A stretch of 64,000 nucleotides of DNA from an uncultured Gammaproteobacteria bacterium (GCA_963922965.1 CAWUKA010000001.1:3990-67989); one strand, 5' to 3'; numbered from the stretch's first letter, positions 41,472 to 62,375 are shown. The notes: generated by a model from the sequence alone, not told the origin. Numbers and translations are program-made.

Positions 41472-42663
41472 TAACAAACAAGTTGTTCTTTTTGTTGATG
41501 CGGGCAGCTCTGGTCGAGGCGGCTCTTTTCATAGTTTATGTGATTTGCTGCGAGTCAATCAGCAGCAGGGCAATACTAGCATTGTTGTCTTATTTAACTC
41601 ATCTCCGCTTGAAAAGCAGTATCAGTCATTTGGTGCAACTGTTCTTCAGCTACGTCATTCGGTATTTTCAACAGCGACAAAATCCGATTTTTGCTCATGG
41701 TGTTATAACAAGGCAAATGCAATTGCAGTTCGACTATCAACACAGTTAGGGTTAATTTTTGAAATGCTATTTCATCAGCCTGCATTAACCGAATTAAAAA
41801 AAATTGTCGATCAGCATAAAGTTACCTGTATTCATTTAAACAATCAGCCGATGCGGAATTTTTTTGGCTTTATGCTAGCAAAAAACAAGAACTTGCCGGT
41901 GGTGTCGCATCTTCGAACTACGCACACCTATGGCTTTACAAAAGCACATGCTAAATATGTCAATTCCATTGCTAGTCAGTTTATCGCGGTATCTGAAGCA
42001 GTAAAGCAGTGTTGGCAGCAACAAGGTTTACCTGCTGCTCATATTGCCGTGATAGGAAATCCAGTTGCGCTAAACAAACGAACTCTGAAAGGTGCTCGGC
42101 AACCATCGGACTCCTTTAAGGTGGTCTATGCAGGTCGGTTAGAATCAGCTAAGGGGCTTAATTTTTTATTGCGTGGTTTTGTTAAAGTGTACGCAGTCAA
42201 TCCAGCAATAGAGCTACATTTGCTTGGTGTCGGATCTTATCAGCACACACTTGAGCAAGCCGTTGCTGAACTCGGTATTGCCGAACAGACTTTTTTTCAC
42301 GGTTATGTTACAGATGTAATACAACAATTATCACTGTTTGATGTGCTCGTGCTACCTTCAGAGAATGAGGGTTTTGGTCGCGTTATCCTAGAGGCAATGG
42401 CAGCTGGGATTGCTGTGATTGCAACTCGGGTTGGCGGGATTCCCGAATTAGTCCAACATCATAAAACAGGCTTGTTGGTTGATTACAATGATGATGATCA
42501 ATTGGCTAGCAGTATTTTACAAATCCAACAACAGCATCAATGGTCTGCTGAAATGATTGAAAATGCTAACCAATTTCTACAAAATAATTATTCTTTTCCA
42601 TTGTTTAGCCAGCGTTTGCTGTCCATTTACTGTAATTTGGAACATCAGTATGAAAAAATATAA
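41464..42663 (+). CDS. Glycosyltransferase family 4 (group 1)
   Basis: EX7E-type GT4 motif region (SENEGFGRVILEAMAAGIAVIATRVGGIPELV). Start at ATG 41464 (MSNNKQVVLF), in an 8-nt overlap with the upstream GT. Confidence 0.78.
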   Translation: MSNNKQVVLFVDAGSSGRGGSFHSLCDLLRVNQQQGNTSIVVLFNSSPLEKQYQSFGATVLQLRHSVFSTATKSDFCSWCYNKANAIAVRLSTQLGLIFEMLFHQPALTELKKIVDQHKVTCIHLNNQPMRNFFGFMLAKNKNLPVVSHLRTTHTYGFTKAHAKYVNSIASQFIAVSEAVKQCWQQQGLPAAHIAVIGNPVALNKRTLKGARQPSDSFKVVYAGRLESAKGLNFLLRGFVKVYAVNPAIELHLLGVGSYQHTLEQAVAELGIAEQTFFHGYVTDVIQQLSLFDVLVLPSENEGFGRVILEAMAAGIAVIATRVGGIPELVQHHKTGLLVDYNDDDQLASSILQIQQQHQWSAEMIENANQFLQNNYSFPLFSQRLLSIYCNLEHQYEKI

Positions 42664-43267
42664 AACAGTAGCTTTATTAGGTCGTCAGGCTGGACTAGAA
42701 GTGCTACAAAATGTACTACTGACCGATGAACGTATCGAGCTCACTTGTGTGGTAACTCACGCTCAACTACCAACTGCCGAGGGTGGTGGTGAGCGCCCCG
42801 AATACAAACAATACCAGCAGCTTTGTGCAGCACATGCGCTACCTTTGCTAACGTTAGATAGAGATCAAGCTAAGCAACTCGATAGTTATTTGCCGACTAG
42901 TGAAATTGACTTCATCATATCATTGTCATGGCGCTATATTCTTCCTAAATCGCTATTAGCACGCGCGCGCTGTGCTAGCATCAATTTGCATCGCGGTGAT
43001 ATTGATAAATTTCCTGGCACACAGCCCGTACGTCGGGCACTGGAAGCTAACGAAACGCGGGTAGCGATTACGGCACATCACATGATAGAAGAAGTCGATG
43101 CTGGCCCAGCGCTTGCGACAGTTTGGCGAGAAGTCCCATCACTCGAGTCAAGTGCGCAGGATAGAGTTGCTTTGACTGAGGCGGTAAAGCAAAGCCTTAT
43201 TCCACTCTATTCACCACTATTGCAGCTTGCTTTAGATGCAGTGCTCACTGACCAGCGTTTCATATAA
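42650..43267 (+). CDS. Formyltransferase-domain protein (Fmt/PurN-like N-domain only)
   Basis: 206 aa. Catalytic triad context is conserved (INLHRG... with Asn and His; EVDAGP with Asp). Short, with no C-terminal tRNA-binding domain, which is the sugar N-formyltransferase type of architecture. Confidence 0.65.
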   Translation: MKKYKTVALLGRQAGLEVLQNVLLTDERIELTCVVTHAQLPTAEGGGERPEYKQYQQLCAAHALPLLTLDRDQAKQLDSYLPTSEIDFIISLSWRYILPKSLLARARCASINLHRGDIDKFPGTQPVRRALEANETRVAITAHHMIEEVDAGPALATVWREVPSLESSAQDRVALTEAVKQSLIPLYSPLLQLALDAVLTDQRFI

Positions 43268-43927
43268 TACAATTGATGTCTGAATAACACTATTTGTGTT
43301 AAAAAAATCTAGCATTGCATTGTCTGGAATAATTTTTAATTCGCTATACTCGTTGCTGTCACCCTGTTGAAATCGTTGTGCTATAACTTCAGCGTCTAAT
43401 GTTACCGTTAACGAAATCCCTAAGTCATAAACGCCAGTTGTGGTATCTTCGATTAAGACAAAACAGTCTACTGCTGTTGTTTCATCTAGCTTGATATTGA
43501 TTTCTTCCTCTAATTCATCGTATAGCTGTTGTAAAGGATTATCGCAATTACAGGCATCGACACTGCCGGAGGGGGCGCATTCCCAGTAATTTGGCAATTG
43601 GCTAACTACAGCTGAGCGACGCGCCAATAGGTAGCCGCTTTCGCAGTGTAATATGCCACTGACTGCTAGCGGTTGAATTTTCAGTTTAGTTTTTAGTTCG
43701 GGCGAAATTAATGTTGCAAGAAATTCTCGATAAGGTCGAATGCTGATTTCCAGCAACTGCGGTTGCCAGTTGTTTACGCTGACAATGTGATTATCTGTTA
43801 ATGATCTTTTTGCTGATTGCTGTTGCCAAATTTTATCGATCTGTTTTTCTAGTGAGGAATCGATAGTTGCGGTAGACTCTCTCGTAATAATTTTTAGTGG
43901 CTGCTTGAGCCGATAAACATGATTCAT
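43232..43927 (-). CDS. Hypothetical protein, possible divergent Nudix-fold hydrolase
   Basis: 231 aa. The segment YLLARRSAVVSQLPNYWECAPSGSVDACNCDNPLQQLYDELEEEINIKLD resembles the Nudix box GX5EX7REUXEEXGU, but key residues are substituted. Confidence 0.45.
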   Translation of the reverse strand: MNHVYRLKQPLKIITRESTATIDSSLEKQIDKIWQQQSAKRSLTDNHIVSVNNWQPQLLEISIRPYREFLATLISPELKTKLKIQPLAVSGILHCESGYLLARRSAVVSQLPNYWECAPSGSVDACNCDNPLQQLYDELEEEINIKLDETTAVDCFVLIEDTTTGVYDLGISLTVTLDAEVIAQRFQQGDSNEYSELKIIPDNAMLDFFNTNSVIQTSIVLYETLVSEHCI

Positions 43928-44568
43928 GGTGTTAACTCATCAATTAACTCAGCCAGAGAGCTGATCGATTCACAGGGGGTGGCATGTGCTTTTAGTGTAG
44001 TAGAAGGTTGTTTATTTAAGAGGAATGTTTTTATGCCGGCTTGCAATGCAGAACTCGCACCGGTTTCAGTGTCTTCAACCGCAATGCTATCAAGTGCTTG
44101 CACTGATGCTTGTTTTAGTGCAGCGAGATATGGTGCTGGATGTGGTTTACCTTGACTGGATTGTTTAGCGTCAATGATGAAGTCGATATATTCTATCAGA
44201 TTATGTTGCTCTAGCCAGTCTGAAATCAGTGATCTGTGATTTGAGGAGACAATTGCAATGCTATAAAAATTTTTCTTTGCGTGTTGTAGGACTTTCAAAG
44301 TACCGAGTATCGGTTGTACCTCTTGGTAGATCCGATTGACTTGTCTCATATAATTAGCTTTTAGTTCCGACTCGCTGATAGGTAAATCATAGCTTTGTTT
44401 TAGAAAAGCGATCACTTCATCAAGTGGTGGTCCATTTAAGCGAGCAAATTCATCTTCACTACCTTGGTAGCCAAATTCGGCTAAAAATCCATAGTATATT
44501 TCGACTAGTGCTGGGATACTATTTGCAATTGTACCATCGAAATCGAGAAATAAGCCTTGCTTCTTCAT
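43924..44568 (-). CDS. HAD-superfamily hydrolase (phosphatase or beta-phosphoglucomutase-like)
   Basis: Motif I LFLDFDGTIANS. The later SNHRS and (K)...DT motifs are consistent with HAD subfamily IA. Start set at the internal Met to avoid overlap. Confidence 0.75.
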   Translation of the reverse strand: MKKQGLFLDFDGTIANSIPALVEIYYGFLAEFGYQGSEDEFARLNGPPLDEVIAFLKQSYDLPISESELKANYMRQVNRIYQEVQPILGTLKVLQHAKKNFYSIAIVSSNHRSLISDWLEQHNLIEYIDFIIDAKQSSQGKPHPAPYLAALKQASVQALDSIAVEDTETGASSALQAGIKTFLLNKQPSTTLKAHATPCESISSLAELIDELTP

Positions 44569-44572
44569 ACTA

Positions 44573-45259
44573 TTACGCATAAGGATAAGTTCGGGCTCGG
44601 GCAACTTTAGCTGTTGACCAATCATCCCAGTTAATTTTCTGATAGGTTGTGCGCGCGTTGGGGTTTTGCTGGATTGCCGGTGCCACCCTTTGATTGATTA
44701 AAGGGACCATCATGGTCAGTAGCTCTTGCTCAAGTTCAATCATTTCTAAGTACAGCTCAGTTGCCGTCACTTGTCTTGGGTCGAGCTGGCACTTGACTTG
44801 AGCGATGATTGGTCCGGTATCTATGCCCTGATCAAGCCAAGATAATGTGATGCCAGTTTCATGGCAGTCGTTTAGTATGGCATTCACAATCGGTACCCAG
44901 CCGGCGCCTTTTGGTAACAATGATTCATGTAGTCCGATTAGGGGGTATAAATTTAATAAATCTGCATTGAATAACTGCTGCCAGCTGAGGCAATAAATAA
45001 AATCGGGGTTGAGTGATTTTATCTCTTGATAGAAGTCGTTGATGTTGCCATTTACTTCAATAACTGGAACTTTATTCGCAAACTTATATTGGCTTTTATC
45101 AATCAAATCGACACCTTCCCAGCCTGGTGAGCTTGGGCCACGAGTATAGAACATCACAATCTCTTCACCTAATGGTATCGAGCCGATTATCAGGGTAGTC
45201 AAATTGAATACTGTGAGTAAACCCAAGTATTTTGCCGGCTTTGCTGCTTTCCTCAGCAA
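44573..45259 (-). CDS. Formyltransferase-domain protein (Fmt-like N-domain); the 5' end overlaps an LmbE remnant
   Basis: Canonical formyltransferase core LIGLHESLLPKGAGWVPIVNAI...LDQGIDTGPII. The N-terminal ~30 codons of the ORF are the alternate frame of the LmbE fragment. Confidence 0.65.
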   Translation of the reverse strand: MLRKAAKPAKYLGLLTVFNLTTLIIGSIPLGEEIVMFYTRGPSSPGWEGVDLIDKSQYKFANKVPVIEVNGNINDFYQEIKSLNPDFIYCLSWQQLFNADLLNLYPLIGLHESLLPKGAGWVPIVNAILNDCHETGITLSWLDQGIDTGPIIAQVKCQLDPRQVTATELYLEMIELEQELLTMMVPLINQRVAPAIQQNPNARTTYQKINWDDWSTAKVARARTYPYA

Positions 45260-45455
45260 GCATGTCCTGCGCGGGCCTTGCTTTATCAGTTTTTGAACTC
45301 ATGTAGCGCCCTGCTATACCGCGAGTCATGGTCACTAACGATGCTTGCCAGCCTTGTTTGGTTTTTAGTCTAACTGTAGCGCCGCAGCCGAGCACTTCAT
45401 CGTCTGGGTGGGCCGCTACCACCATAAGGTGTTTATTTTTCATCGTTAACTCCAA
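45165..45455 (-). pseudogene. N-terminal fragment of a PIG-L/LmbE-family N-acetylglucosaminyl deacetylase, truncated after ~96 aa
   Basis: HLMVVAAHPDDEVLGCG (the AHPDDE metal-binding motif) and LGFTHSIQFDYPDNRLD are typical of the LmbE N-terminus. The ORF stops at 96 aa, whereas the family is ~220-250 aa. The downstream sequence continues as the formyltransferase in another frame. Confidence 0.55.
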
Positions 45456-45764: not shown

Positions 45765-46973
45765 ATGACTGAATTTTTACCTTACGCAAAACAATTTATC
45801 GATGATGTTGATATTGACGCTGTAGTTGATGTATTAAAAAGTGATTGGCTCACTTGTGGTCCCACTGTCGATCGGTTCGAAACAGCGTTTGCTGAGTATG
45901 TAGGTAGTCAGCATGCAGTTGCATGTGCGAACGGTACCGCTGCACTGCACTTATTGACCTTAGCCCTTGGTATTGGTCCGGGGAATCAAGTCATTGTACC
46001 AAGTGTCACGTTTGCTGCTACTGCCAATGCTGTGCGTATGGCTGGTGCCGATGTTATTTTTGCTGATGTCGATCCTAATACTGGTCTTATCACAGCAAAT
46101 ACCCTCGCTGCTGCACTGCAGCGCTGCGAGCCTACTCGACTAGTCGCGGCTTATCCGGTTCATCTTGCTGGTCGTTATGTTGATATTGTAGTGCTGCGGG
46201 AATTGCTCGAATCATTTTGTCAACGTGATCCAGTTATCATTGAAGATAGCTGCCATGCGTTAGGGGGTTACCTTGCGGGAAGTCAACAGAAGATCGGTAG
46301 TTGCCAACACAGCACGGCAGCAACTTTTTCATTGCATCCGACAAAGATCATGACGGCAGGCGAGGGTGGCGTGATTACAATGAATGATGAGTCGTTAATG
46401 GCACAGTTAAAGCTGTTAAGAACACACGGCATTAGCCGAAATTCGCAACACTTTGTCAATTCAAGTTTTGCTGTTGCCGACAATGGCGAGCCAAACCCAT
46501 GGTATTATGAACTCCAGCAACTCGGCTTTAATTACCGGATTACCGACTTTCAGTGTGCACTGGCTGAAAGTCAACTTAAAAAGTTGGATGATTTTGTTGC
46601 CAAGCGGCAACAATTAGTGAATCACTACGACCATTGTTTACAACAAGCAGCTATTCCGCAGGTTCGGCCAATGCAGCGGGGTCAAGCGAGCAATAACAGC
46701 TGGCATTTATATGCGATCGAAATTGATTTTGCTGCAGCTGCTAAACCGCGTGCAGAAGTCATGCAGGCATTACGGCAACAAGGGATTGGCAGCCAAGTAC
46801 ATTACATTCCATTACACATACAGCCTTATTATCAGGCGCAATATGGAGAGCTTGAATTACCTGGTGCGTTTACTTATTACCAGCATACTTTATCTTTGCC
46901 ACTTTATTTTGCCATGAACAATTCGGATGTTGAGCAAGTGGTAGAAGTGCTGAGTGCTGTTTTAGCTGCTTGA
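45765..46973 (+). CDS. DegT/DnrJ/EryC1/StrS-family PLP-dependent sugar aminotransferase
   Basis: 402 aa. Its N-terminus and the conserved regions around GTAALHL and CHALGG are typical of nucleotide-sugar 4-aminotransferases of the PseC/ArnB type. The PLP lysine lies in the K-containing segment SLHPTKIMTAGEGG. Confidence 0.8.
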   Translation: MTEFLPYAKQFIDDVDIDAVVDVLKSDWLTCGPTVDRFETAFAEYVGSQHAVACANGTAALHLLTLALGIGPGNQVIVPSVTFAATANAVRMAGADVIFADVDPNTGLITANTLAAALQRCEPTRLVAAYPVHLAGRYVDIVVLRELLESFCQRDPVIIEDSCHALGGYLAGSQQKIGSCQHSTAATFSLHPTKIMTAGEGGVITMNDESLMAQLKLLRTHGISRNSQHFVNSSFAVADNGEPNPWYYELQQLGFNYRITDFQCALAESQLKKLDDFVAKRQQLVNHYDHCLQQAAIPQVRPMQRGQASNNSWHLYAIEIDFAAAAKPRAEVMQALRQQGIGSQVHYIPLHIQPYYQAQYGELELPGAFTYYQHTLSLPLYFAMNNSDVEQVVEVLSAVLAA

Positions 46974-47990
46974 TCAGATGTTGTAGACGTTTGCCTTGTA
47001 TTTCGCAAGATTAGCTGGATTCTTGAACCAATCAATCGTGATAGCCATTGCCTTGGAAAAATTGTCAAGGCCTGAGTATTGTGGTTGCCAATTTAAGCGT
47101 TGCTGCGCCAGACTATTATCAGCAACTAAACGATTCACTTCGCTTTTCTCTGGTCTAATGCGCTGCTCGTCTATGACTACATCAATGTCTTGTTGCATGA
47201 GTTCGGCAATTAAGTTGGCGGTATCACCTATTGAAATTTCGAAACCAGTACCTAGGTTCGTTGTTGTGCCAATACAACTATCGCTTGTCAGTGCGGCATA
47301 AAAACCTTCAGTGATGTCATCAACAAAGTTAAAGTCTCGTGTTGGTGTCAGCGCCCCGAGCTTGATTTGCTGATGTCCTGCTGCAATCTGACTGATAATC
47401 GTTGGAATGATGGCGCGTGCAGATTGACGTGGACCAAAAGTATTAAAGGGTCTGATCACAGCCACCGGCAGATCGTGTGAGCAGTGAAATGCAAGCGCGA
47501 GTTGGTCGGCTGCCACTTTTGATGCGGCGTAAGGGGATTGGGCTGATAGTGGGTGAGTCTCACTGATCGGTACCGTTTGCGCTGTGCCGTATACTTCACT
47601 GGTTGAGGTATGAATCACTTTTTTAAGACTAAGTTCGCGTGCAGCAGTTAACACATTAAGTGTACCGGTGACGTTGGTGTCGATATACGACTGCGCAGCG
47701 TAATAAGAGTAGGGGATAGCAACTAATGCTCCCAAATGGAGTACTGCATCACAGCCTCGCATCGCGTTATAAACAGTTTGGTAATCTCTTAAATCACCAG
47801 AAACAGTTTCGATGTTTGCTGTTTTGTGATGAGGTAATACTTCAGTGTCAAGCCAGCCGATTTGAGCAGACGAGTTGTAAAGATAAAACGCTTTGACATT
47901 GGCACCTTTTGCTAATAATTTTTCAACAAGATGAGAGCCGATAAAACCTTCTGAACCGGTTACGAGTATTGTTTTGTTATGAATTTCCAT
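46974..47990 (-). CDS. NAD-dependent nucleotide-sugar epimerase/dehydratase (extended SDR)
   Basis: 338 aa. Rossmann motif GSEGFIGSHL. Catalytic YAASK (YxxxK). Confidence 0.8.
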   Translation of the reverse strand: MEIHNKTILVTGSEGFIGSHLVEKLLAKGANVKAFYLYNSSAQIGWLDTEVLPHHKTANIETVSGDLRDYQTVYNAMRGCDAVLHLGALVAIPYSYYAAQSYIDTNVTGTLNVLTAARELSLKKVIHTSTSEVYGTAQTVPISETHPLSAQSPYAASKVAADQLALAFHCSHDLPVAVIRPFNTFGPRQSARAIIPTIISQIAAGHQQIKLGALTPTRDFNFVDDITEGFYAALTSDSCIGTTTNLGTGFEISIGDTANLIAELMQQDIDVVIDEQRIRPEKSEVNRLVADNSLAQQRLNWQPQYSGLDNFSKAMAITIDWFKNPANLAKYKANVYNI

Positions 47991-49173
47991 GATTAACCTC
48001 GGTTAGATGGGGGCTGCTTGGTAAATTTATAATTCGTTGTGCTAAATCTTCAGTGCAGGTTAGGTCCATGTGTGGACTGTGCTGATAGATGTTAAGTGTA
48101 TGCAATGGCTGCCAAGCTGGTCGTAACAAAACCTTTGCTGCGTGTGCGCGAGCAAGAATGGCTTCATGTAGATTTTGATCAGCTTGTTTTAATAAAAGTG
48201 CATTGAGCCAATAGTTACTGCGAGCAAAGTCTGCTTCTGCAAAGCAATCAACGTATGAATTGCCAGCAAATGCATTTTGATAGCGTGCCGCTAATGTTCT
48301 TTTCAACTCGACAAAATGTTGCAATGATTGTAACTGAGCAACACCGAGAGCAGCGTTGATGTTAGGTAGACGATAATTATAACCGATTTCATCATGCTGA
48401 TAGTGCCATGGGTGACTGCACTTTGCTGTGGTTGCCAAATGTTTAGCGCGCTTTGCATAGTTGGCATTGTTGGTGACCAATGCTCCGCCACCACCGGTGG
48501 TAATGATTTTATTGCCATTAAAGCTGAACATAGCGATATCAGCATGATTGCCAACGTGTTTATTTTTATAGAAAGAACCGAGTGCTTCGGCGGCGTCTTC
48601 GATCAGGTACAGCTGGTACTCATCGCATAGTGCACGACAACTATCAAGATTTGTTGGGTGGCCAAAAGTATGCATGACACATAGCGCTGAAATTTTGCGT
48701 CCAGTTTGTTCATTGAAGACTGCATTGTCTCTGCGTTGTGCGATTTGGCTAAGATAGTCGGCAAGTTTATCAGTATCAACACCTAAAGAATTTTCGTCGA
48801 TATCAACAAAGTGAGGGTATGCGTCTAGGTAACTAATGGCATTGGCAGTGGCGACAAAGGTTAAACTTGGTACTAGTACTTCATCATTGGCTTTGATATC
48901 AAGCACCCGCAACGCAAGGTGTAACGCTGTTGTCCCATTTACAGTTGCAACAGTATGTTTGATACCAGTAAGCATTGACAATTGCTGTTCGAATTCGGCG
49001 ACATATTTGCCAAGATAGGAAACATAGCCACTATCGAGTGCGCTGATGACGAATTTTTTCTCAGCTTCGCCTATGCAAGGTTCATGCAGTGGCAACGTCG
49101 TATTAGTTTGGCCGGTCACTTGCCGAATAATGCCGATAATCTGATCGGAAATAATTTTATGCTCATCGAGCAT
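47977..49173 (-). CDS. DegT-family aminotransferase (LegC/PseC-like)
   Basis: Conserved DegT regions (VATVNGTTALHLALR; FSFNGNKIITTGGGGAL). Start set at the internal Met (MLDEHKIIS). Confidence 0.8.
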   Translation of the reverse strand: MLDEHKIISDQIIGIIRQVTGQTNTTLPLHEPCIGEAEKKFVISALDSGYVSYLGKYVAEFEQQLSMLTGIKHTVATVNGTTALHLALRVLDIKANDEVLVPSLTFVATANAISYLDAYPHFVDIDENSLGVDTDKLADYLSQIAQRRDNAVFNEQTGRKISALCVMHTFGHPTNLDSCRALCDEYQLYLIEDAAEALGSFYKNKHVGNHADIAMFSFNGNKIITTGGGGALVTNNANYAKRAKHLATTAKCSHPWHYQHDEIGYNYRLPNINAALGVAQLQSLQHFVELKRTLAARYQNAFAGNSYVDCFAEADFARSNYWLNALLLKQADQNLHEAILARAHAAKVLLRPAWQPLHTLNIYQHSPHMDLTCTEDLAQRIINLPSSPHLTEVNHGNS

Positions 49174-49316
49174 GACTGAAGTCTCTTGTTCTTGTTGGTA
49201 GGCAGAATTGCGCAAGTATGGCATAATCAGTTCAGTTTTAACAACAGTATGCCTAGTCGTAAATCAGAATCGAGGGGGGGTGAAGTGGCTAGTATACTGG
49301 CTAAGGAGATAGAGTA

Positions 49317-50396
49317 TTGTCAATAAAAGACTGGGAAAAGTGTTTAGTGCCAATGTCTGCAAGTATTCGTCAAGCGATTGAAGTCATTGATCAAGCCGCG
49401 TTCCAAATCGGTTTAGTCGTTGATGAAGAGCGGGTTTTGCATGGTGTTATTACCGATGGCGATATCCGGCGCGCATTTTTACACAACCATCAGCTTGATG
49501 AGCCGATTACCACCATCACAACCAAAAAACCGTTTTCAATATCGACTGAAGACGCCGCTGCTGTGCCACAAGCTGTGATTAAGCACATGCGTTTTCATTC
49601 CTTGCACCATATTCCAATCATCGATGCACACAATCGTGTTGTTGGGCTTGAATACATTGATAACTTCATTATGCATACCAAGCGCGATAACATCGTTTTT
49701 ATTATGGCAGGTGGCTTGGGGACACGACTAAAGCCGCTAACCGATGACTTGCCAAAGCCATTGTTAACGGTTGGTGGCTATCCGATGCTCGAATTGCTGA
49801 TTCGAAATTTCGCTTCTTATGGCTTTTATCGCTTTGTGATTGCTGTTAATTATAAAGCTGATTTAATTATGCAAACGATTGGTAATGGCGAGCAGTATGG
49901 CGTTGAAGTTGATTATGTTATCGAACAGAAAAAATTAGGCACTGCTGGTGCACTGAGCTTATTAAATGAAAATCCAGCACAGCCTATGATCGTTACTAAC
50001 GCAGATATTCTGACGAATATGGATTTTGCTAAGTTGTTGCAGATGCATGAAGCAAGTTATGCCGATGTCACACTGTGCTCACGACAGTATCAGTATACAG
50101 TACCGTTTGGTGTGTTGCAGGTAGATGGTGCTGATCTAGTCCGTATTGAAGAAAAACCACAGCATACTGCTAGGGTAAATGCAGGCATTTATGTGTTTAA
50201 TCCATCGATTTTGAAACAAGTGCCGCACGCTACTAAAATTGATATGCCAATGTTACTGCAGCAATTGCTCGAAAAAAATTATCATGTTGCAACCTACAGT
50301 ATCGATGAATATTGGCTTGATGTTGGCCGTGTTGAAGAGTTAAAGCGTGCCCAACTTGATTGCGAAAAATTGTTTTGGCATGAGCTTCTAATCTAA
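49317..50396 (+). CDS. CBS-pair plus nucleotidyltransferase (PtmE-like sugar-1-phosphate guanylyl/nucleotidyl-transferase)
   Basis: 359 aa. An N-terminal tandem CBS region is followed by an NTP-transferase domain with the IMAGGLGTRLKPLTDDLPKPLL signature (G-x-G-T-R motif). Confidence 0.75.
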   Translation: MSIKDWEKCLVPMSASIRQAIEVIDQAAFQIGLVVDEERVLHGVITDGDIRRAFLHNHQLDEPITTITTKKPFSISTEDAAAVPQAVIKHMRFHSLHHIPIIDAHNRVVGLEYIDNFIMHTKRDNIVFIMAGGLGTRLKPLTDDLPKPLLTVGGYPMLELLIRNFASYGFYRFVIAVNYKADLIMQTIGNGEQYGVEVDYVIEQKKLGTAGALSLLNENPAQPMIVTNADILTNMDFAKLLQMHEASYADVTLCSRQYQYTVPFGVLQVDGADLVRIEEKPQHTARVNAGIYVFNPSILKQVPHATKIDMPMLLQQLLEKNYHVATYSIDEYWLDVGRVEELKRAQLDCEKLFWHELLI

Positions 50397-50404
50397 CCTC
50401 ACCA

Positions 50405-51172
50405 TTAGATACGCATATTAAAACCTTTCTCAGCGAGAAAATGTTTAGCTCCCAATGGAGTTTGTTCAGTAAATTGAAATATGGCACTAGCACAAACGGC
50501 ATCGATGTGTGGTAGTGTTAACGCATCAAGCATGTGTTGATAATTGCCTGCACCACTGCAGGCAATGATCGGGATTGATACCTCAGCAATCTGCTGGAGT
50601 AAGTCAAGATCATAGCCAGTCATTTTGCCGTCATTATCGATTGATGAGATGATAATTTCGCCGGCGCCTGCACGCTCGAGCTGTTTAATCCAATCACTTA
50701 CTATCAGCTTAGTATCAACTGTGCCGGCATGGCTATAACAGTGATAGTGATCACCGTGCCGTTTTGCGTCAATGCCAGCGACGATACATTGACTACCAAA
50801 CTGGTTGGCAGCTTGTTGAATCAAGTCAATATTGTTATAACAAGCACTGTTGATTACAACTTTGTCGGCACCAGCTTGGAGAAAGTTAGCGATATCCTCA
50901 ACTGAATCAATGCCACCGCCGACAGTGAATGGTACAAAGCACGCTGAAGCAAATTGTTGAATCAGAGTGTAATCAGCCTTACGTTGATTGTTCGTTGCTG
51001 CAATATCGTAAAGCACCAATTCATCGACCTCACGAGCATTAAATACTTTGATAGCTGTCAGTACGCTGCTGACCGTGCGCCAATTATCAAAGCCACTACC
51101 CTTGACCAGATCAACGCCATTCCAAAGTAAGCTTGGTATGATACGGGTTTTAAGCATCAGAGCGCTCGACAA
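50405..51172 (-). CDS. Imidazole glycerol phosphate synthase cyclase-subunit paralogue (HisF-like, WbuZ-type)
   Basis: 255 aa (beta/alpha)8 HisF-like protein. Located inside a glycan cluster next to HisH- and WbpG-like genes rather than in a his operon. Confidence 0.8.
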   Translation of the reverse strand: MSSALMLKTRIIPSLLWNGVDLVKGSGFDNWRTVSSVLTAIKVFNAREVDELVLYDIAATNNQRKADYTLIQQFASACFVPFTVGGGIDSVEDIANFLQAGADKVVINSACYNNIDLIQQAANQFGSQCIVAGIDAKRHGDHYHCYSHAGTVDTKLIVSDWIKQLERAGAGEIIISSIDNDGKMTGYDLDLLQQIAEVSIPIIACSGAGNYQHMLDALTLPHIDAVCASAIFQFTEQTPLGAKHFLAEKGFNMRI

Positions 51173-51785
51173 AGTTCTTTAATAGCTGTAAGCCTGAGGT
51201 TGAGCTTTTTTCTGGATGAAATTGAACACCATAGATATTTTCTCGCTTAATGGCTGTAACCAGCGTGTCGCAGTATGGTGTCGTACCAATCACATGCTGT
51301 TGTTGTTCAGCAATAAAATGATAGCTATGCACAAAGTAAAAATCAGCTTGTGACCGGATATTGGAAAACAATTTCTCGCTATTGTCAAAGCTCAGGTTGT
51401 TCCATCCAACATGTGGTACTTTTTCCTGGTTGGTGGCAACAATTTTTTTCACCTTGCCAGGAATTAATCCGAGTCCAGCAGTTTGTTCTGGTTCGCTGCC
51501 CAAGCTTGCTAAGAGTTGCATGCCAAGACAAATGCCGAGTAACGGAAAGCCTGATTCAACGTGGTCGAGTAGCGCATCCTGCCAACCGGATTGTTGCATG
51601 ATCTGCATGGCTTGCTGAAAAGCGCCAACACCCGGTAGGATAAGATGACTCGCATCATCTACTTGTTCAGGATTATCCATAATCATTGGATTAAATTGTA
51701 GCGTTTTAAGTGCATTATAAACTGAGGTGATATTGCTAATACCTAGATTGATAATGCCGATCTGTTGATTATTCATCATTATCAT
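51150..51785 (-). CDS. Glutamine amidotransferase class I, HisH-like (WbuY-type)
   Basis: 211 aa. Catalytic Cys in GICLGMQLL. C-terminal HPEKS. Confidence 0.82.
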   Translation of the reverse strand: MIMMNNQQIGIINLGISNITSVYNALKTLQFNPMIMDNPEQVDDASHLILPGVGAFQQAMQIMQQSGWQDALLDHVESGFPLLGICLGMQLLASLGSEPEQTAGLGLIPGKVKKIVATNQEKVPHVGWNNLSFDNSEKLFSNIRSQADFYFVHSYHFIAEQQQHVIGTTPYCDTLVTAIKRENIYGVQFHPEKSSTSGLQLLKNFVERSDA

Positions 51786-52923
51786 ATTTGAGTTTGGTTA
51801 GGCTGCCGTTGCTATCTTTAATCAACTCGCCTTTTTTATTGGTTCGAAATAATTTTCTATTGGTAAAGTTATCGCATATCTCAATGAATTGATCGATGCT
51901 TAAATCAAGTGGCGCAATGATGTCTACAAGTGATTTTCCTAAATGCTGCCACGGAAATTCACCATCATGTTTGCGCGCTAACACCATGCCCTGTTGCCTG
52001 GTTAGTCGGCTTCGTCGGATGTGTAAGCAAGCTAAATCTGTGGTGCGAGAAAATCCATATTTAAGAAATTTGAAGTAATCATGAATACCATTTTGGTGAT
52101 TATCTAGATTTTCATAATTGACGATAGAACCTTCAACTACTGTTGAATAGGTGTTAAATCCATGTGCTTGTGCGACTAGGGCGTTATGGTAGCCATCCCA
52201 AGGAAAAAAATGACCGAGGAATAAGCTAGTAATGCCAACCCGTACTAATGTTTCATCATCAGGGTAGGTATAAAGATCAAGATCGCGTTCAGTAATCCCA
52301 CTTTTACCAATGACATCAGTAACACGCATACCATTTAAACCACCAAACTCTTCTAGCCAACGTCGATTCAGCATTTGACTATTGCTTGCTACATCTGGAC
52401 CACCGTATTCGTTTTGTGAATTTTCACCCCAGAGAATAACTGGGATGTTAAACTGGACAGCAATGCGAATTGGAATGGTGAACATCGCAAGATGCTCAGG
52501 CCAAGAAATATCACCAACCTGCTCAAGACCAATGCGGTTCAATTTACGCCGTATCACTGGATCCGGTGCAACTTCAATCAAGTCGATGCCATTTTGTCTG
52601 AGTGCGTCGATATTTTTTCGGCCAAGTTCGGTTAAATCACATGTTCTCGAGGTGACAACTAATGGTCGTAGGCCAAGCTCAAGTGCTTTTAAGGTTTGAT
52701 AGGTACTATCTTTGCCACCGCTAGACGGAATAACACAGTCCCAGGCACTGTTGCTTCGCTTGCAGGTTTGCTCGAGAATAGTCATTAATTCGACTTCGCG
52801 TTGCTGCCAATCAACTTGCTGGCGCTTTTCTATATAGCGGCAAGCACTGCATATGCCTTCTTCATCAAATTGTAAATCTGGCTTAGTATCAGGCATGATG
52901 CAATTTTTGCAATAGCGTTGCAT
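51769..52923 (-). CDS. N-acetyl sugar amidotransferase (WbpG/PseA-like, PP-loop ATP pyrophosphatase family)
   Basis: 384 aa. N-terminal Cys cluster (CKNCIMPDTKP...CSAC). PP-loop SSGGKDST. Confidence 0.8.
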   Translation of the reverse strand: MQRYCKNCIMPDTKPDLQFDEEGICSACRYIEKRQQVDWQQREVELMTILEQTCKRSNSAWDCVIPSSGGKDSTYQTLKALELGLRPLVVTSRTCDLTELGRKNIDALRQNGIDLIEVAPDPVIRRKLNRIGLEQVGDISWPEHLAMFTIPIRIAVQFNIPVILWGENSQNEYGGPDVASNSQMLNRRWLEEFGGLNGMRVTDVIGKSGITERDLDLYTYPDDETLVRVGITSLFLGHFFPWDGYHNALVAQAHGFNTYSTVVEGSIVNYENLDNHQNGIHDYFKFLKYGFSRTTDLACLHIRRSRLTRQQGMVLARKHDGEFPWQHLGKSLVDIIAPLDLSIDQFIEICDNFTNRKLFRTNKKGELIKDSNGSLTKLKYDNDE

Positions 52924-52934
52924 ATTAACTCCTT

Positions 52935-53546
52935 TTACTTGCGCTTGAGTAGAAACCAGGTTTGGTTATCCCAACTCGGCTCAGCACGTTTCCATAAGAA
53001 GCCATAGTCAACCAACTCTAAATCATTTGGGTATCGATCAAGTACTTCACCAGCAAAGTCGCGTTTAAATAGTCGTTCTTGTTCGCCACGATAGCTCACT
53101 GTAGTTGGTGTTGGATTAAAATATTCACTGATCAAAATATATTTATTTGATAAATTAAATAACTTATCGTAAGTATAACTCAGTTCATTTGGGTTTAAAT
53201 GGATGAGAACACCACAAGTCATCACAAGCTCAAAACATTGGTCGCTATCAAATTCATGAATCGAGCAATTTACCGCAGTCACATAGCTGCACTCTTGCAG
53301 TTTTTCGTAAGCTGTTTTATTGATTTCAATTCCAGTGAGCTTGCTGTTCGAATTTAAGGAATGTAATGCTGCTAGATTATGCCCAGCATTAGGTCCTATT
53401 TCACAGGCTGAGTCTAATTCTCCGGTGAGTATCACTAGTTTTTTAAAAAATTTTATACGACTTGCGACATCAATGTTATTCCGTTCGATGTATTCATCAC
53501 CAAATTCACCATGCCAAAATTGTTCTTGCTCATTCATTTGCCTCAT
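52935..53546 (-). CDS. Class I SAM-dependent methyltransferase (pseudaminic-acid-biosynthesis-associated methylase-like)
   Basis: 203 aa. N-terminus FWHGEFGDEYIERNN and glycine-rich EIGPNAGHNL resemble the small methylases found in Pse/Leg clusters. Sits next to the amidotransferase trio. Confidence 0.65.
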   Translation of the reverse strand: MRQMNEQEQFWHGEFGDEYIERNNIDVASRIKFFKKLVILTGELDSACEIGPNAGHNLAALHSLNSNSKLTGIEINKTAYEKLQECSYVTAVNCSIHEFDSDQCFELVMTCGVLIHLNPNELSYTYDKLFNLSNKYILISEYFNPTPTTVSYRGEQERLFKRDFAGEVLDRYPNDLELVDYGFLWKRAEPSWDNQTWFLLKRK

Positions 53547-53548
53547 CC

Positions 53549-54283
53549 TTAATCCTTTCGATTTTGCTCAAATATTTCATTCTTTTTCAACCAACTTGGA
53601 TGTTGTGACAGTAGGTTGGTGATATCTTCTAGTGTGTAATCTGGCTTGCTCGGATACAGTGACTCGATAATAAGTTTAATTAACTCTAGATCATCTGGGT
53701 AATCCAGAGTGACGCGGATATAGCTAGTATCATCTTTATTCATGAGGTTAGCTATTTTAAATAAATGTGGATTTTGTCTCAGATAAAAGGTCACGTGTTC
53801 ACGCTCTTCAGCAGACTGCGCTCTGTGATAGAGTTTGGCTAAGCATGTTAGGCTGAAAATTTCTACATCCATGCCGCGTGGGTAACTACGGGCAAGTAAG
53901 TTGCTGGCGTAATCAAGCGTTGCTTCATTGTTGGCAAATAAATCGATGACCTTGTCAATGATATTAGGATCAATGAGTGGGCAGTCAGAGGTGACACGTA
54001 TGATCGCCTCTGCTGAAAATGCTTTGGCAGCATGGTAATAGCGAGATAGAACATTGCTATCTGAGCCTCGGAAACATTCCACGCCGTAGTCATTGCATAT
54101 ATCAATAATAATATCATCAATGGTTTTGGTACTGGTTGCGATCACAATGCAATCCGCGTGCTTGACCCGTTTTAGTTGCTCAATGTGGTAACCAATGATT
54201 GATTTCTCGCGTATTTCTTTGAGAATTTTTCCTGGCAAACGTTCTGATGAGACATGTGCTTGCGAGATGATGACTTTACGCAT
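53549..54283 (-). CDS. Cytidylyltransferase, CTP_transf_3 family (SpsF/PseF-like)
   Basis: 244 aa. N-terminal VIISQAHVSSERLPGKILKEI matches the SpsF/PseF pattern (QAR-x-S-x-RLPGK). Confidence 0.75.
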   Translation of the reverse strand: MRKVIISQAHVSSERLPGKILKEIREKSIIGYHIEQLKRVKHADCIVIATSTKTIDDIIIDICNDYGVECFRGSDSNVLSRYYHAAKAFSAEAIIRVTSDCPLIDPNIIDKVIDLFANNEATLDYASNLLARSYPRGMDVEIFSLTCLAKLYHRAQSAEEREHVTFYLRQNPHLFKIANLMNKDDTSYIRVTLDYPDDLELIKLIIESLYPSKPDYTLEDITNLLSQHPSWLKKNEIFEQNRKD

Positions 54284-54408
54284 ACATTACACCCAATCAA
54301 TACAGCTGGTGGTTAGCTGGTTGGCTCTAACCTTAAGTATAGAAAAAGTTATGCATTCGGGATGATCAATCTGGTGCAATAATGCCATTTGACCCGTTTA
54401 TATCGGTA

Positions 54409-55434
54409 CTAAAGTGCTTCAGAGTTGCGTAGCAATTGCTGAATTTGTTCTCTATCCAGCCATTCGTTATTTGAATCGCTGCTGTAGGTGAATCGATCGG
54501 GAACTGGTGTGACTTGTTGCTCAGTATAGGGTTCATCATCCCAATATTTGAACTGTGGTGTGATCATATAACTGTCTGTTAGTTCTAAAGTATTACGTGC
54601 ATCATCGGCGGTTACCATCACTTCATGCAATTTCTCGCCAGGGCGAATGCCAACAACTTCATGTGGTAACTCAGGCGCGATTGCTTTAGCGAGATCAACA
54701 ATGTTGACGCTTGGCAGTTTAGGTACAAAAATTTCACCACCTTTCATGCGGTTAAAGCAAGAGAGGACAAAATTAACCCCTGAGCCAAGCGCAATCACAA
54801 AACGTGTCATCTCTGGATCTGTGATGGTGAGATGAGTTGAGCCTTCAGCAACACATTGGCGAAAAAAGGGTACAACGCTGCCACGAGAACCGATGACATT
54901 GCCATAACGGACAACAGCAAAACGGGTTCGCCTGTGGCTGCTGAGACTATTAGCGGCGACAAAGATTTTATCCGATGCTAATTTTGACGCCCCGTATAAG
55001 TTAATTGGGTTAGCTGCTTTGTCAGTAGACAAAGCAATGACTCTATCGATATTATTGTTGATTGCGGCACGAACAACATTTTCCGCACCGTGGATATTGG
55101 TTTGGATGCACTCAAAGGGGTTATATTCAGCGGTTGGTACTTGTTTTAAGGCGGCGGCATGGACAACGAAGTCAACATCTTGCATTGCCATTTCTAACCG
55201 CGCGTAATCGCGCACGTCACCAATGAAAAAGCGGAGTACTTTTTGGTCAATCTGGCCTAACTGTTTTGCCATTTCATATTGTTTTAGCTCATCGCGTGAG
55301 AAAACAATTAGACGTTTTGGTGCGTAGCGGTCGAGTACCGATTTAATGAAGTGCTTACCGAATGAACCACTCCCACCGGTAATGAGGATCGATTTGCCAT
55401 TAAGGTCGATAGGGTTGGAATACTTTGTAATCAT
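54409..55434 (-). CDS. Nucleotide-GlcNAc 4,6-dehydratase (PseB/LegB/FlaA1 family, Polysacc_synt_2)
   Basis: 341 aa. ILITGGSGSFGKHF Rossmann motif. Catalytic YGASK. Whether it is of the inverting (PseB) or retaining (LegB) type cannot be told from sequence alone. Confidence 0.82.
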   Translation of the reverse strand: MITKYSNPIDLNGKSILITGGSGSFGKHFIKSVLDRYAPKRLIVFSRDELKQYEMAKQLGQIDQKVLRFFIGDVRDYARLEMAMQDVDFVVHAAALKQVPTAEYNPFECIQTNIHGAENVVRAAINNNIDRVIALSTDKAANPINLYGASKLASDKIFVAANSLSSHRRTRFAVVRYGNVIGSRGSVVPFFRQCVAEGSTHLTITDPEMTRFVIALGSGVNFVLSCFNRMKGGEIFVPKLPSVNIVDLAKAIAPELPHEVVGIRPGEKLHEVMVTADDARNTLELTDSYMITPQFKYWDDEPYTEQQVTPVPDRFTYSSDSNNEWLDREQIQQLLRNSEAL

Positions 55435-55548
55435 ACTTATTGGTAGTATTATTGGCGTTAACTATGAATATAGTGCAGGCTTGTCGGAATTGCTAAGTGT
55501 CAGCAGCCTGTCTTCGGATGTGTCAAATCACTACTTAAGCCAGATGTG

Positions 55549-55881
55549 CTAGCTTGATGGCGCTAGTTTTAACGCGGCTATGCGTTTATCTAACTCTAGC
55601 ACTTCTGTAGTGTCGCTTGGTGAACTTGCTGGCGGTGGGAAGATGTTGTAATATTTACCATCTTCACTGTCTATACTCACTGTACCTGGATATGCTGCTT
55701 CTGTTGGAATCGTAGCTGTAGGCTGAGCATCGGCTGCAGATGCTTGTGGTGAGTTTGACTCCTCAGCAGATTGTCGGGGCAGTGTTGCTGTACGCGTTTG
55801 TTTTGCCCTAGGTCTTCCCTCCTCCTTTCCTTCTCCCCCAAGCTCGCAAAGATTGCCTGCAATTGTTCTGCTACGTTTCAT
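55549..55881 (-). CDS. Small low-complexity (P/S/A/T-rich) hypothetical ORF in a locally GC-rich, polypyrimidine-rich patch
   Basis: 110 aa with no motif. It coincides with a GC-rich stretch (55741-55860) that is atypical for the surrounding AT-rich cluster. It may be spurious. Confidence 0.25.
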   Translation of the reverse strand: MKRSRTIAGNLCELGGEGKEEGRPRAKQTRTATLPRQSAEESNSPQASAADAQPTATIPTEAAYPGTVSIDSEDGKYYNIFPPPASSPSDTTEVLELDKRIAALKLAPSS

Positions 55882-55978
55882 AATATTGATAGCTTTAATA
55901 AGTTATAAGGTAAATACTACATAGCAGCAGTGGTGGGGACAAGCCGAAGGGCGTATTAATTTTATCTAAAACTTTTAG

Positions 55979-57131
55979 TTAGCTTTTACTGGCTAATAGC
56001 GTTTTTAGGCTAGCTAGTGCTTGTGAGAATGGTATCACTTCAATGTCATCTTGATAGTAGTAGTGCGTTTGACCACCGTAGAGTAAATAGTATTTTGCCA
56101 TTGGGTAATCAGCGGCAAAGGTTTTTATCGCTTTGAAGTCGGCTTTGTTTAAATTTGATTTTCGTTTTATTTCAAAAGCGAAAAAACTATTATTACCATA
56201 TAAGATAAAATCAACTTCGAGTTGATTTTGAGTGCGCCAATAATAAAAATTATAATCAAGTTCAAAGTAAGCATTAAGCGCCATTGCTTGTTGCAAGAAT
56301 AGTGTTTCTAACACAGCTCCTTCTAATTCTTCGGTCGAGTCCAGCACTCCTTGTGGTCTTAATGAGCGGTAGACGCCAACATCAAAAAAGTAAAATTTAG
56401 GTCGTGAAGCCATATTGCGTTTGGCACGTTTTTTAAAAATAGGAATACGGTGCGCGATTAATAAGTCTTCTAGAATATCAAAGTAATTAGCAATGGTATG
56501 ACGATTCGATGAAGTTTCTTTAGCAATACGTGTGTAATTAGTCACGTCGCCTTGTGAGAAACTTGCTACTTCTAGAAATTTGGCGAATAAATTGAGATTG
56601 CGCGTCAAACTTTCTTGTAATACTTCTTCGCGAAGATAAATTTTAACATAACTCGCTAAATAATTTTTTGGATCTTCATATGTATAAATCGAAGGCAAGT
56701 TACCAAATTGTAATGACGTTGTTAAAGAGAATTGTGCGCCAAGTTCGTAGCTCGTGAGTGGATGCATTTGCTTAGTTAAAGCACGGCCAGCTAACAGGTT
56801 AACTCCTTTTTTTCGTAATGCTCGCGCGCTAGAGCCAGTGATTATAAATTTGCTGCCCCTTGTTTCGATCAGTCGATGCACTTCATTGAGTAACAGAGGA
56901 ATTTTTTGTATCTCATCTATGATGACCCAGTCCGGTGTATTTAGCAGGAATGCGACTGGCTAAGCTGGCTGGATTTGCCAGTAAAGCTTGATACTCGTCA
57001 GTCCTTAACAGGTCAAAGGTAATAGCATCTGGCAGTAAGTGCCCTAACCAGTATGCTTTACCGTTCCTCTCGGGCCGAGCAACGATGCTATGTTTCGAAC
57101 GGGGATTCAGTTTTAATAGTCTTTCAAACAT
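55979..57131 (-). pseudogene. AAA+ ATPase of the COG1373/DUF4143 family, split by a frameshift
   Basis: An N-terminal fragment (56913..57131, carrying a degenerate P-loop RPERNGKAYWL) and a C-terminal 300-aa ORF (55979..56881). The C-terminal frame reads upstream as ...PDWVIIDEIQKIPLLLNEVHRLIETRGSKFIITGSS (Walker B), out of frame with the N-terminal part. Confidence 0.6.
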
Positions 57132-57326
57132 TGGTAAGTCTTACATGCCTAGTCTATTGAACTTAAATGATTTTTTACCTATATCTATACGAAGGCTAAA
57201 AAAACACTATATGGAACACCACTTTTTATGAAAAACGAGATCTTTATTCTCGTTTTAGTATACTATTATCCGACTGCGCGGTTGGTTAAGCGCTAGAGCG
57301 TACCAAAGAGGATAGTGAGGGAATGC

Positions 57327-59177: not shown

Positions 59178-59479
59178 TTAAACAAATTGAAGTTTAGTTT
59201 AACATTTGTGAGTTTATTTGGCTGCACAACATTGCTAGATAGCAAAATAAAAGGAAATGGCTTCCAGCATAGGTGTGACGTCCAAACACGGCTTTATAAC
59301 TGACTAATGTCCAAGTCGTAGTCAGCTGACTGTTGTTAAACCGCTGCATGAATTATCCAGTTAGCAGCAGTCTTCCGCATTCTATTGTTAATCTTACTCA
59401 GATTGTTAAGATGTGACCTAATTTAATAAATTTGATATCCCAGTCGGTATGATTAATTTACTAACAGAGAAGGAATGTC

Positions 59480-60499: not shown

Positions 60500-60501
60500 C
60501 T

Positions 60502-61647: not shown

Positions 61648-62375
61648 TGGCTATTCGGGGTTTATCCGTTTTAGCTTTGGTGCCAGCACGTGGTGGAAGC
61701 AAAAGTATCAGCAAAAAAAATCTGTGCTTGGTAGGTGGCTTATCACTGGTTGCGCGAGTTGCGGCAGTTGTTAGCAGTATCGACTGGATCGATTTTGCTT
61801 TACTCAGCACTGATGACAAAGACATAGCGGCTGAAGGTATGCAACATGGTTTGTCAGTACCGTTTCTAAGGCCTGATAAACTTGCTCGAGATGATACTAC
61901 GGCGCTAGCAACTTGGCAGCATGACTGGCTGGCAGTAGAACGTCATTGCCAACAGCAATTCGACATTGCAATTTGGTTGCAGCCAACCAGCCCAACTCGA
62001 ATTGTTGCTGATGTTGAGATGACAGTGAATGCGCTGTTAACCAATAACTGTTTTGCAGCAGCTACCGTGAGTCGATTGCCGGGCCATTACCATCCGGAAA
62101 AAATTTTACAGATCGACGCTAATAATTATCTCGAATATTATGTCGGCGGTCAGCAAGGGAAAAGTTTGCGTCAGCAGTTAACACCTTATTATTACCGCAA
62201 TGGTCTTTGTTATGCCGCTAAACGCCAATGCATTTTGGAGTTGAACAGTATAATCGAATATCAATGTTACCCTGTTGTGATTGACAGGCCAGTTGTTAAT
62301 ATTGACGAGCCCTATGAATTAGCATTAGCCAATTGGATGACAGAAGAAGATGACAAGATCAAAGCAGCTACGTGA
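61647..62375 (+). CDS. neuA: Acylneuraminate cytidylyltransferase family (NeuA/LegF)
   Basis: 242 aa. [18 protein letters not shown], the CMP-NeuAc synthetase N-terminal motif. Confidence 0.85.

Follow-up and report, generated by a model that had tools for sequence, protein, structure and literature searches.

A pseudaminic acid accessory module with a possible PseG bypass, and a deletion across its PIG-L and formyltransferase-fold genes, in an uncultured gammaproteobacterium

The stretch of DNA considered here comprises 64,000 nucleotides from an uncultured Gammaproteobacteria bacterium (GCA_963922965.1, CAWUKA010000001.1:3990-67989) and is referred to below as the window, with positions counted from its first letter. 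Between 42650 and 45455 it carries genes for two formyltransferase-fold proteins (FT205 and FT221), a HAD phosphatase, a Nudix-like protein of 231 residues (X231) and a deacetylase of the PIG-L/LmbE type. These genes are one copy of a recurrent accessory module of pseudaminic acid (Pse) biosynthesis, not an ad hoc sub-cluster. The Nudix, HAD and FT205-type genes remain intact in the window; the deacetylase gene is a pseudogene of an ordinary kind, broken by a deletion that has also beheaded FT221. On balance we lean towards the view that this is a copy of a Pse module that has lost its PIG-L/FT221 pair, in which the Nudix and HAD enzymes would bypass PseG and in whose complete form PIG-L and FT221 would exchange the acyl group at N5.

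An earlier note on this DNA had picked out the five open reading frames (ORFs), and these do behave as real genes, with Pfam E-values of 1e-14 to 1e-35, the 231-residue protein alone giving only a sub-threshold NUDIX match. Its description of two formyltransferase domains, a HAD protein and a cut PIG-L gene that ends in another frame than the overlapping formyltransferase ORF is also borne out. The module itself, the reach of the deletion into FT221, and the Nudix and HAD proteins as likely nucleotide-removal steps were absent from it.

The module was compared in 13 other loci with an FT221 homologue, drawn from several phyla. The named ones are labelled Verrucomicrobium, Sneathiella, Magnetococcus, Vicinamibacterales, Bdellovibrionales, Pseudobdellovibrionaceae and Rhodospirillales, and the others are metagenome contigs. 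A genome scan with the FT221 alignment gave 6 true loci among 80 hits and a metagenome scan added 2, generic formyltransferases dominating both. The gene order of the module is PIG-L, FT221, a slot for an N-acyltransferase, HAD and a protein of about 230 residues, X, to which X231 corresponds. A full-length PIG-L homologue lies directly upstream of FT221, often abutting it, in all 13 loci, an adjacency that fits a pair acting by deacetylation and then re-acylation. A HAD hydrolase and an X homologue are likewise found near FT221 in 13 of 13. Homologues of PseB, PseC and/or PseI stand beside the module in 10 of these loci, while the fetched flanks of two, L005 and L008, contain no homologue of any of the three. 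PseF or a CTP_transf_3 cytidylyltransferase is present in several, and one module adjoins flagellar genes. In L007, from a Vicinamibacterales metagenome-assembled genome (OZ250139.1), the PIG-L match (5264-5925 of L007) is split between two frames (residues 11-45 and 56-239), owing either to a frameshift or to an indel error from long-read sequencing.

The slot between FT221 and HAD is occupied by a PseH-like GNAT protein in 10 loci, sometimes fused to PseI, by a PseJ homologue, FT195, in L001 (PDB 6ci2, E 2e-41), and by a homologue of FT205 in L007 and L086 (39% and 46% identity to the window protein, respectively). In the window, FT205 is displaced and stands last in a GT4-GT4 operon on the other strand. 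Since the slot holds a GNAT protein, a PseJ homologue or an FT205 homologue depending on the locus, FT205 is best understood as one of the alternatives for this N4-acyltransferase position. The idea that the second formyltransferase might be a regulatory paralogue is not borne out, given that its homologues fill that slot in L007 and L086. A further locus, L171, has X, HAD and PseH-PseI without PIG-L or FT221; the Nudix and HAD genes and the PIG-L and FT221 genes are therefore separable pairs. GFO_IDH_MocA oxidoreductases, radical-SAM/SPASM proteins, an aldo-keto reductase, a CTP_transf_3-Aminotran_3 fusion and a FemAB-family protein lie nearby in L086, L087, L168 and L169, and hint at further tailoring of the sugar.

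The deletion is defined from both sides. When the intact 240-residue PIG-L protein of L001 is used as a tblastn query against the whole 64-kb window, residues 12-99 match positions 45428-45171, and residues 100-240, which include HHPGDYNWDH, match nothing in any frame. The remnant (45165-45455, minus strand; Pfam PIG-L, E 1.6e-16) encodes 92 amino acids from an ATG at 45443, or 96 from a TTG at 45455, and covers positions 1-83 of the 129 in the Pfam profile. Its 92-residue product, in which VVAAHPDDEVLGCG can be read, keeps the N-terminal AHPDDE metal-binding and catalytic motif. It is devoid of the C-terminal 141 residues and hence of the His-containing zinc motif (HxxH / xDH), so that the HxxH region, which was to be sought by alignment to a full-length homologue, is indeed absent.

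On the other side, the FT221 ORF (44573-45259, minus strand; Pfam Formyl_trans_N, E 1.5e-18) has lost its beginning. Almost all members of the family are exactly 221 amino acids long and start with MARIIVIGGIESTFxNAQxLxxLGEEIVMFYTRG. Homology in the window begins only at family residue 23 (LGEEIVM...), the first 22 codons being gone. The lost segment contains I7, G8, G9, I10, E11, S12, N16 and L20, all invariant in 54 members, and the N-terminal Rossmann-like subdomain (beta-1/alpha-1) of the remnant is incomplete, whereas that of FT205 is complete. Translation could restart only at the ATG at 45154, from which 193 of the 221 codons are readable (44573-45154, minus strand); AGGTGA at 45170-45165 could serve as its ribosome-binding site. 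Homologues annotated with 193 residues were considered as independent truncations and rejected, as they are start-codon mis-calls with the N-terminal coding sequence present upstream.

Direct reading of the sequence and the limits of homology place the junction at 45170-45173 (minus strand). Two nucleotides are shared by att (45173-45171), the final codon with PIG-L homology, and tta (45172-45170), the codon at which FT221 homology begins, the break itself being placed at 45171/45172. PIG-L codon 99 is thereby joined to FT221 codon 23 out of frame and, because the two frames differ, the PIG-L frame soon stops, at a TGA (45167-45165) two codons past the junction. The gap between the end of PIG-L and the start of FT221 is 0-10 nucleotides in related loci, so that the arrangement is most simply explained by a single deletion of about 490-500 bp, which took out 141 codons of PIG-L, its stop codon with the spacer, and 22 codons of FT221. 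At 4 further columns, where all 54 others agree, the FT221 remnant has a different residue, compared with 0-2 such differences (mean 0.24) in other members. With the C-terminal part of PIG-L and a conserved FT221 segment lost, and with these four changes, both genes are most likely dead in the window.

The earlier note had called this region a decayed gene or a frameshift fusion and had pointed to an indel near 45165-45260. The decayed gene stands, through a deletion of about 0.49 kb, and the frameshift fusion does not. A small indel is at odds with the absence of PIG-L residues 100-240 from the entire 64 kb and with the loss of 22 FT221 codons, and a one-base correction cannot restore either the full deacetylase or the formyltransferase. 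A repeat scan found no repeats that explain the deletion, a promoter and terminator scan gave sites no more numerous than in shuffled sequence, and the window has no match in Rfam. Out of frame, the tail of the PIG-L remnant (45175-45259, minus strand) reads ...TLIIGSI, similar to the RIIVIGGI of the deleted beta-1 strand, and extends the formyltransferase ORF to a TTG at 45259; the likeness is probably due to chance.

FT205 (42650-43267, plus strand; 205 amino acids; Pfam Formyl_trans_N, E 9e-14) is encoded by the last gene of a GT4-GT4-FT operon. The gene shares its first 14 nucleotides (42650-42663) with the stop region of the GT4 gene upstream, and its end overlaps the convergent Nudix gene tail to tail by 36 bp (43232-43267). 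Against PF00551 (Formyl_trans_N) it scores 52 bits and the FT221 ORF 67.6 bits, with a cut-off of 26.1. The window copy of FT221 has HESLLP...DTG, but carries Gly at the catalytic Asn site two residues before the His, and the RG motif has Ala in place of Arg. This Gly is a property of the family, being found in at least 90% of its 54 members, in which the His, the Asp and the SLLP folate loop are invariant. FT205 keeps N112, H114 and D150. Its family, of about 50 clusters, has the consensus INLHRGxLPxYAGAEP...VDAG, and the window protein alone has I-D for the near-invariant L-P. The labels once given to the two proteins, canonical for FT221 and altered for FT205, are thus nearly reversed, since it is FT221 that has Gly for the catalytic Asn and FT205 that keeps Asn-His-Asp. 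The solved structures closest to FT205 are Fmt and ArnA, with PseJ reached only at E 1.5e-4; the FT221 family profile matches PseJ (6ci2) at E 1.3e-9, and its best matches are all enzymes that use N10-formyltetrahydrofolate.

X231 (43232-43927, minus strand) is an apparently intact, NUDT22-like Nudix protein. At normal thresholds no Pfam or NCBIfam model matches it, the NUDIX score being 14.3 bits against a cut-off of 21.1 (E 0.041), and a word-indexed homologue search retrieved only the protein itself. An exhaustive HMMER search returned 1045 cluster representatives at E<=1e-3. In an alignment of 69 X sequences E116, E138 and E142 are invariant and E141 is near-invariant, and all are present in X231. 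Its box, D-E-L-E-E-E-I-N-I, keeps the three Glu of REUXEE; compared with GX5EX7REUXEEXGU it is non-canonical at the Arg, at the closing Gly and in the Gx5E spacing upstream. When the family profile is aligned with BdRppH, the box pairs with REL-EELGI (E 1.3e-4). The proposal that the catalytic Glu positions are substituted does not hold, as E138, E141 and E142 are in place, and the suggestion of an inactive enzyme finds no support.

An AlphaFold model of X231 built from the family alignment has a pLDDT of 96.8 (a single-sequence model, at 29.5, was discarded). In a Foldseek comparison with the PDB, six entries or chains of human NUDT22 come out on top, with E down to 2.7e-14 and a TM score of 0.76, as against E near 1e-6 for other Nudix proteins. 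The model has the Nudix alpha/beta/alpha fold, and its two-domain architecture, an N-terminal domain and a Nudix domain, can be superposed on NUDT22. Because the metal-binding Glu residues are conserved and NUDT22 is the top structural match of the model, X231 looks like an active nucleotide-sugar pyrophosphatase of the NUDT22 type, not a degenerate one.

The HAD gene (43924-44568, minus strand) precedes that of X231, its stop codon overlapping the X231 start (ATGA). The longest ORF starts at 44625; the ATG at 44568, giving 214 amino acids, is most likely the true start. The HAD_2 domain scores 122.5 bits against a cut-off of 23.8 (E 3e-35), and direct reading of the sequence finds the motifs DFDGT, VSSN, GKPHP and EDTETG. 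The protein belongs to the HAD-IA subfamily (TIGR01509, 43.9 bits, cut-off 29.4) and to the beta-phosphoglucomutase (beta-PGM) family of phosphatases. Among NCBIfam models, those for the beta-PGM family and for sugar phosphatases match below their cut-offs, and no equivalog cut-off is reached. The window protein is 42% identical to the HAD protein of L001.

The association of X with HAD extends to gene fusion. Among ten multidomain representatives of the X family that were scanned, five are HAD-X proteins and one is GNAT-HAD-X; X is joined to GNAT in two, and the others are X-PseG-GNAT and X-cytidylyltransferase-PseG, one each. Every partner is a Pse-pathway activity, HAD being the commonest. 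The fusion proteins of L001 (4781-7018), P0161 and P0192 are X-PseG-PseH (745 amino acids), X-cytidylyltransferase-PseG (1008 amino acids) and GNAT-HAD-X (590 amino acids), respectively. In the seven module loci annotated with Pfam, as in L171, no PseG-type domain (GT28_C or TIGR03590) occurs within 8-10 kb, and the un-annotated neighbours in those seven loci do not match the PseG model TIGR03590. The canonical Pse pathway (PseB, C, H, G, I, F) is incomplete in the window too: PseB and PseC are present, and tblastn with PseG and PseH domains finds no match for either in the 64 kb. To judge from these gene contents, the most economical reading is that Nudix and HAD together would act as a two-step substitute for PseG. 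A literature search found no published link of a Nudix protein to pseudaminic or other nonulosonic acids, or to PseG.

The pathway may then run as follows. PseB and PseC would make UDP-4-amino-4,6-dideoxy-AltNAc, whose N4 would be acylated by the enzyme of the slot; here this would be FT205, so that the group is probably formyl, leading to an N7-formyl product. Protein X would cleave the UDP-linked 2,4-diamino-2,4,6-trideoxyhexose into UMP and a sugar-1-phosphate, from which the beta-PGM-family HAD enzyme would strip the phosphate, the free hexose passing to Pse synthase. In intact modules PIG-L would remove the GlcNAc-derived N-acetyl group, at the future N5, and FT221 would re-acylate the amine, probably with formyl. 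As the PIG-L/FT221 pair is destroyed in the window, this exchange would be lost and the product should keep its N5-acetyl.

The genes lie within a nonulosonic acid glycan cluster of at least 24 kb, in agreement with the sugar-pathway setting claimed before. PseC (45765-46973, plus strand), an aminotransferase gene divergent from the module, and the dehydratase gene PseB (54409-55434, minus strand) both exceed their equivalog cut-offs (TIGR03588, 458.6 bits against 423.5; TIGR03589, 524.8 bits against 407.75). Further Pse-type genes encode a Pse-associated methylase and a WbuX/HisH/WbuZ amidotransferase set. Of the Leg type, LegC (47977-49224) scores above its NCBIfam cut-off, and LegB (46974-47990), with 472.5 bits, falls just short of the cut-off of 475. 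The cluster also includes a PtmE-like CBS-nucleotidyltransferase, a NeuC-like epimerase, two cytidylyltransferases, a PglK-like ABC exporter and GT4 glycosyltransferases. Genes of the Pse and Leg types are interleaved across 45765-62375. The only NeuB-family synthase in the window (59480-60499) has a higher score for NeuB/LegI than for PseI. At the cluster's edge a phosphoenolpyruvate mutase is fused to an NTP_transf_3 nucleotidyltransferase (62350-63972, plus strand), which suggests phosphonate decoration of the glycan. A 300-residue ORF at 55979-56881 (minus strand), with a DUF4143 domain, only the last 46 positions of AAA_14 and a gap of 446 bp upstream, seems to be another gene of the glycan cluster that has been truncated.

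Several points weigh against the scheme proposed above, in which all enzyme functions are predictions from sequence. In L001 (TIGR03590, 204 bits against 153.55) and in P0161, a genuine PseG domain is joined to X in one protein. X does not, then, simply replace PseG everywhere, and the bypass cannot be the whole story; PseG could also lie elsewhere in the genomes whose module loci are devoid of it. The single NeuB/LegI-like synthase and the Leg genes of the window also make it less certain which nonulosonic acid its surviving genes feed. The fusion to PseG is equally what one would cite for another use of the Nudix and HAD enzymes, namely to clear dead-end or excess UDP-sugars, to recycle UDP/UMP or to act on CMP-Pse, with PIG-L and FT221 tailoring the sugar independently. 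Nudix enzymes are often housecleaning enzymes, which accords with such a role. We nevertheless hold this to be rather unlikely, as X and HAD are closely linked in operons, in many cases fused, and found beside PseH-PseI where PseG is undetectable; a cleanup enzyme is not expected to track core genes so closely. The Asn-less active site makes formyl transfer by FT221 uncertain, and the protein could have the formyltransferase fold without being a formyltransferase, transferring another acyl group or serving as a non-catalytic partner of PIG-L, so that N5 would be a free amine or otherwise acylated. In favour are the Gly at the Asn position in nearly the whole family, an invariant N-terminal IGGIES..N of its own that is atypical of Fmt or ArnA, and the free-amine nonulosonic acids in CMP-activated form (CMP-NulOs) of Kuenenia, as given in passages of the preprint discussed below. 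The invariance of the His, the Asp and the folate loop, and top profile matches that all use N10-formyltetrahydrofolate, speak for formyl transfer and make this alternative unlikely. That both formyltransferases are housekeeping PurN, PurU or Fmt proteins lying in the cluster by chance is hardly credible. The matches to these models that might suggest it are weak and far under the curated cut-offs (for the two window proteins, PurN 41.9 and 37 bits against 150; PurU 29.7 and 22.7 against 286; fmt 38.2 and 70.4 against 201.5); moreover, the C-terminal Fmt domain is absent from both proteins and both families are confined to nonulosonic acid loci. The previous assignment to a sugar pathway rather than to purine metabolism is upheld by the same scores.

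The deletion must also be weighed, as it is known from one assembly. A candidate second record, L002, was rejected, since it is byte-identical to the window, over 16.6 kb, and thus not independent. With a sequence that comes from a record of the metagenome or MAG (metagenome-assembled genome) type and no independent confirmation, the 0.49-kb gap might be a mis-assembly or a minority allele, PIG-L and FT221 being intact in the real genome or in most cells. This seems improbable in view of a clean junction with 2 nucleotides of microhomology and no Ns, good homology on both flanks, and the four unique FT221 substitutions at invariant positions, which are consistent with a gene already free of selection. 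Far less probable still is a functional fusion or programmed frameshift by which the PIG-L stump and the formyltransferase would be read as one bifunctional protein. The ORFs do overlap in different frames, and the out-of-frame TLIIGSI is similar to the lost beta-1 strand, but the stump is without the C-terminal 60% of the PIG-L fold. No fusion occurs among about 170 homologue hits, all of 221 residues or mis-called at 193, and no slippery or stimulatory element was noted at the junction; repeat and consensus scans gave no notable result.

The reading that we prefer, of a Pse module with its N5-tailoring pair deleted, is for the genome at hand the more ordinary part of the matter: the pair is a pseudogene remnant and the surface sugar probably keeps its N5-acetyl. 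The module itself belongs to a conserved and apparently uncharacterised variant of Pse biosynthesis. More tentatively, and with less confidence than we attach to that reading, one may imagine a widespread, undescribed branch of the pathway that dispenses with PseG by means of Nudix and HAD enzymes, often fused, and that has as an option a PIG-L and an Asn-less formyltransferase-fold protein which exchange the N5-acetyl to give, for example, Pse5Fo7Ac or Pse5Fo7Fo. In that case nature would have knocked out the exchange pair in the window and left the bypass intact. Flagella, capsules and lipopolysaccharides are decorated with pseudaminic and legionaminic acids, whose N-acyl groups govern antigenicity and recognition by phages; the Pse enzymes are under study as drug targets. 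The six-enzyme route from PseB through C, H, G and I to F is usually taken as universal, and few enzymes that alter the N5 substituent are known. If such a branch exists, genome surveys that require PseG under-call Pse producers, and PIG-L and FT221 are concrete candidates for N5 de-acetylation and re-acylation.

Of the known formyltransferases, ArnA, WlaRD, VioF and QdtF share the Formyl_trans_N fold and the His, Asp and SLLP elements seen here. To our knowledge they all keep the Asn-x-His motif, unlike FT221 with its Gly-x-His; the window FT205, for its part, has HRGDID and not the HRGxLP of its own family. PseJ of Anoxybacillus (PDB 6ci2/6ci4), the UDP-4-amino-4,6-dideoxy-AltNAc N-formyltransferase, is similar in being a stand-alone formyltransferase of about 200 residues in a Pse cluster, in the position of PseH, and is credited with completing the path to Pse5Ac7Fo (PMC11040635). 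Both FT205 and FT221 fall outside the PseJ clade, and FT221 differs further in always being paired with a deacetylase and in having no catalytic Asn.

The PIG-L/LmbE zinc deacetylases MshB, BshB and GlcNAc-PI deacetylase have in common with the window protein the N-terminal AHPDDE and, over the first 83 positions of the profile, the fold. Of the window copy a 92-residue stump is left, whereas its intact relatives, of 232-243 residues, lie in Pse operons and match no curated equivalog. A precedent for the proposed pairing comes from Ca. Kuenenia stuttgartiensis, for which passages of a 2026 preprint (bioRxiv 10.64898/2026.04.20.719630) describe CMP-NulOs with a free amine and with N-formyl, and a deacetylase and formyltransferase pair in a legionaminic-type cluster. 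The likeness is one of proposed logic, with deacetylation and formylation at the stage of the nucleotide sugar or its precursor. That cluster is of the Leg type, and the preprint's passages on formyltransferase, deacetylase and pseudaminic acid mention no Nudix or HAD partner. Halorubrum has an N-formyl legionaminic acid and a predicted cluster formyltransferase. The scheme of deacetylation followed by formylation put forward in the earlier note thus gains from the adjacency in 13 of 13 loci and from the Kuenenia precedent, as far as those passages go; in the window itself, where the pair is destroyed, the exchange would be lost.

For the nucleotide-removal steps the comparison is with NUDT22 and PseG. 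Human NUDT22, a UDP-glucose/galactose hydrolase, converts UDP-glucose to glucose-1-phosphate and UMP (PMC10101856). X231 shares only 15-19% identity with it and is a bacterial protein, operonic with Pse genes, whose substrate is predicted. PseG (TIGR03590), the UDP-2,4-diacetamido-2,4,6-trideoxy-beta-L-altropyranose hydrolase, is absent from the window and from eight related loci, yet fused to X in L001. It would have in common with the Nudix and HAD enzymes the release of a free hexose for PseI. PseG, with its GT-B fold, frees UDP in a single step, whereas the proposed pair would employ two unrelated folds and release UMP, then inorganic phosphate.

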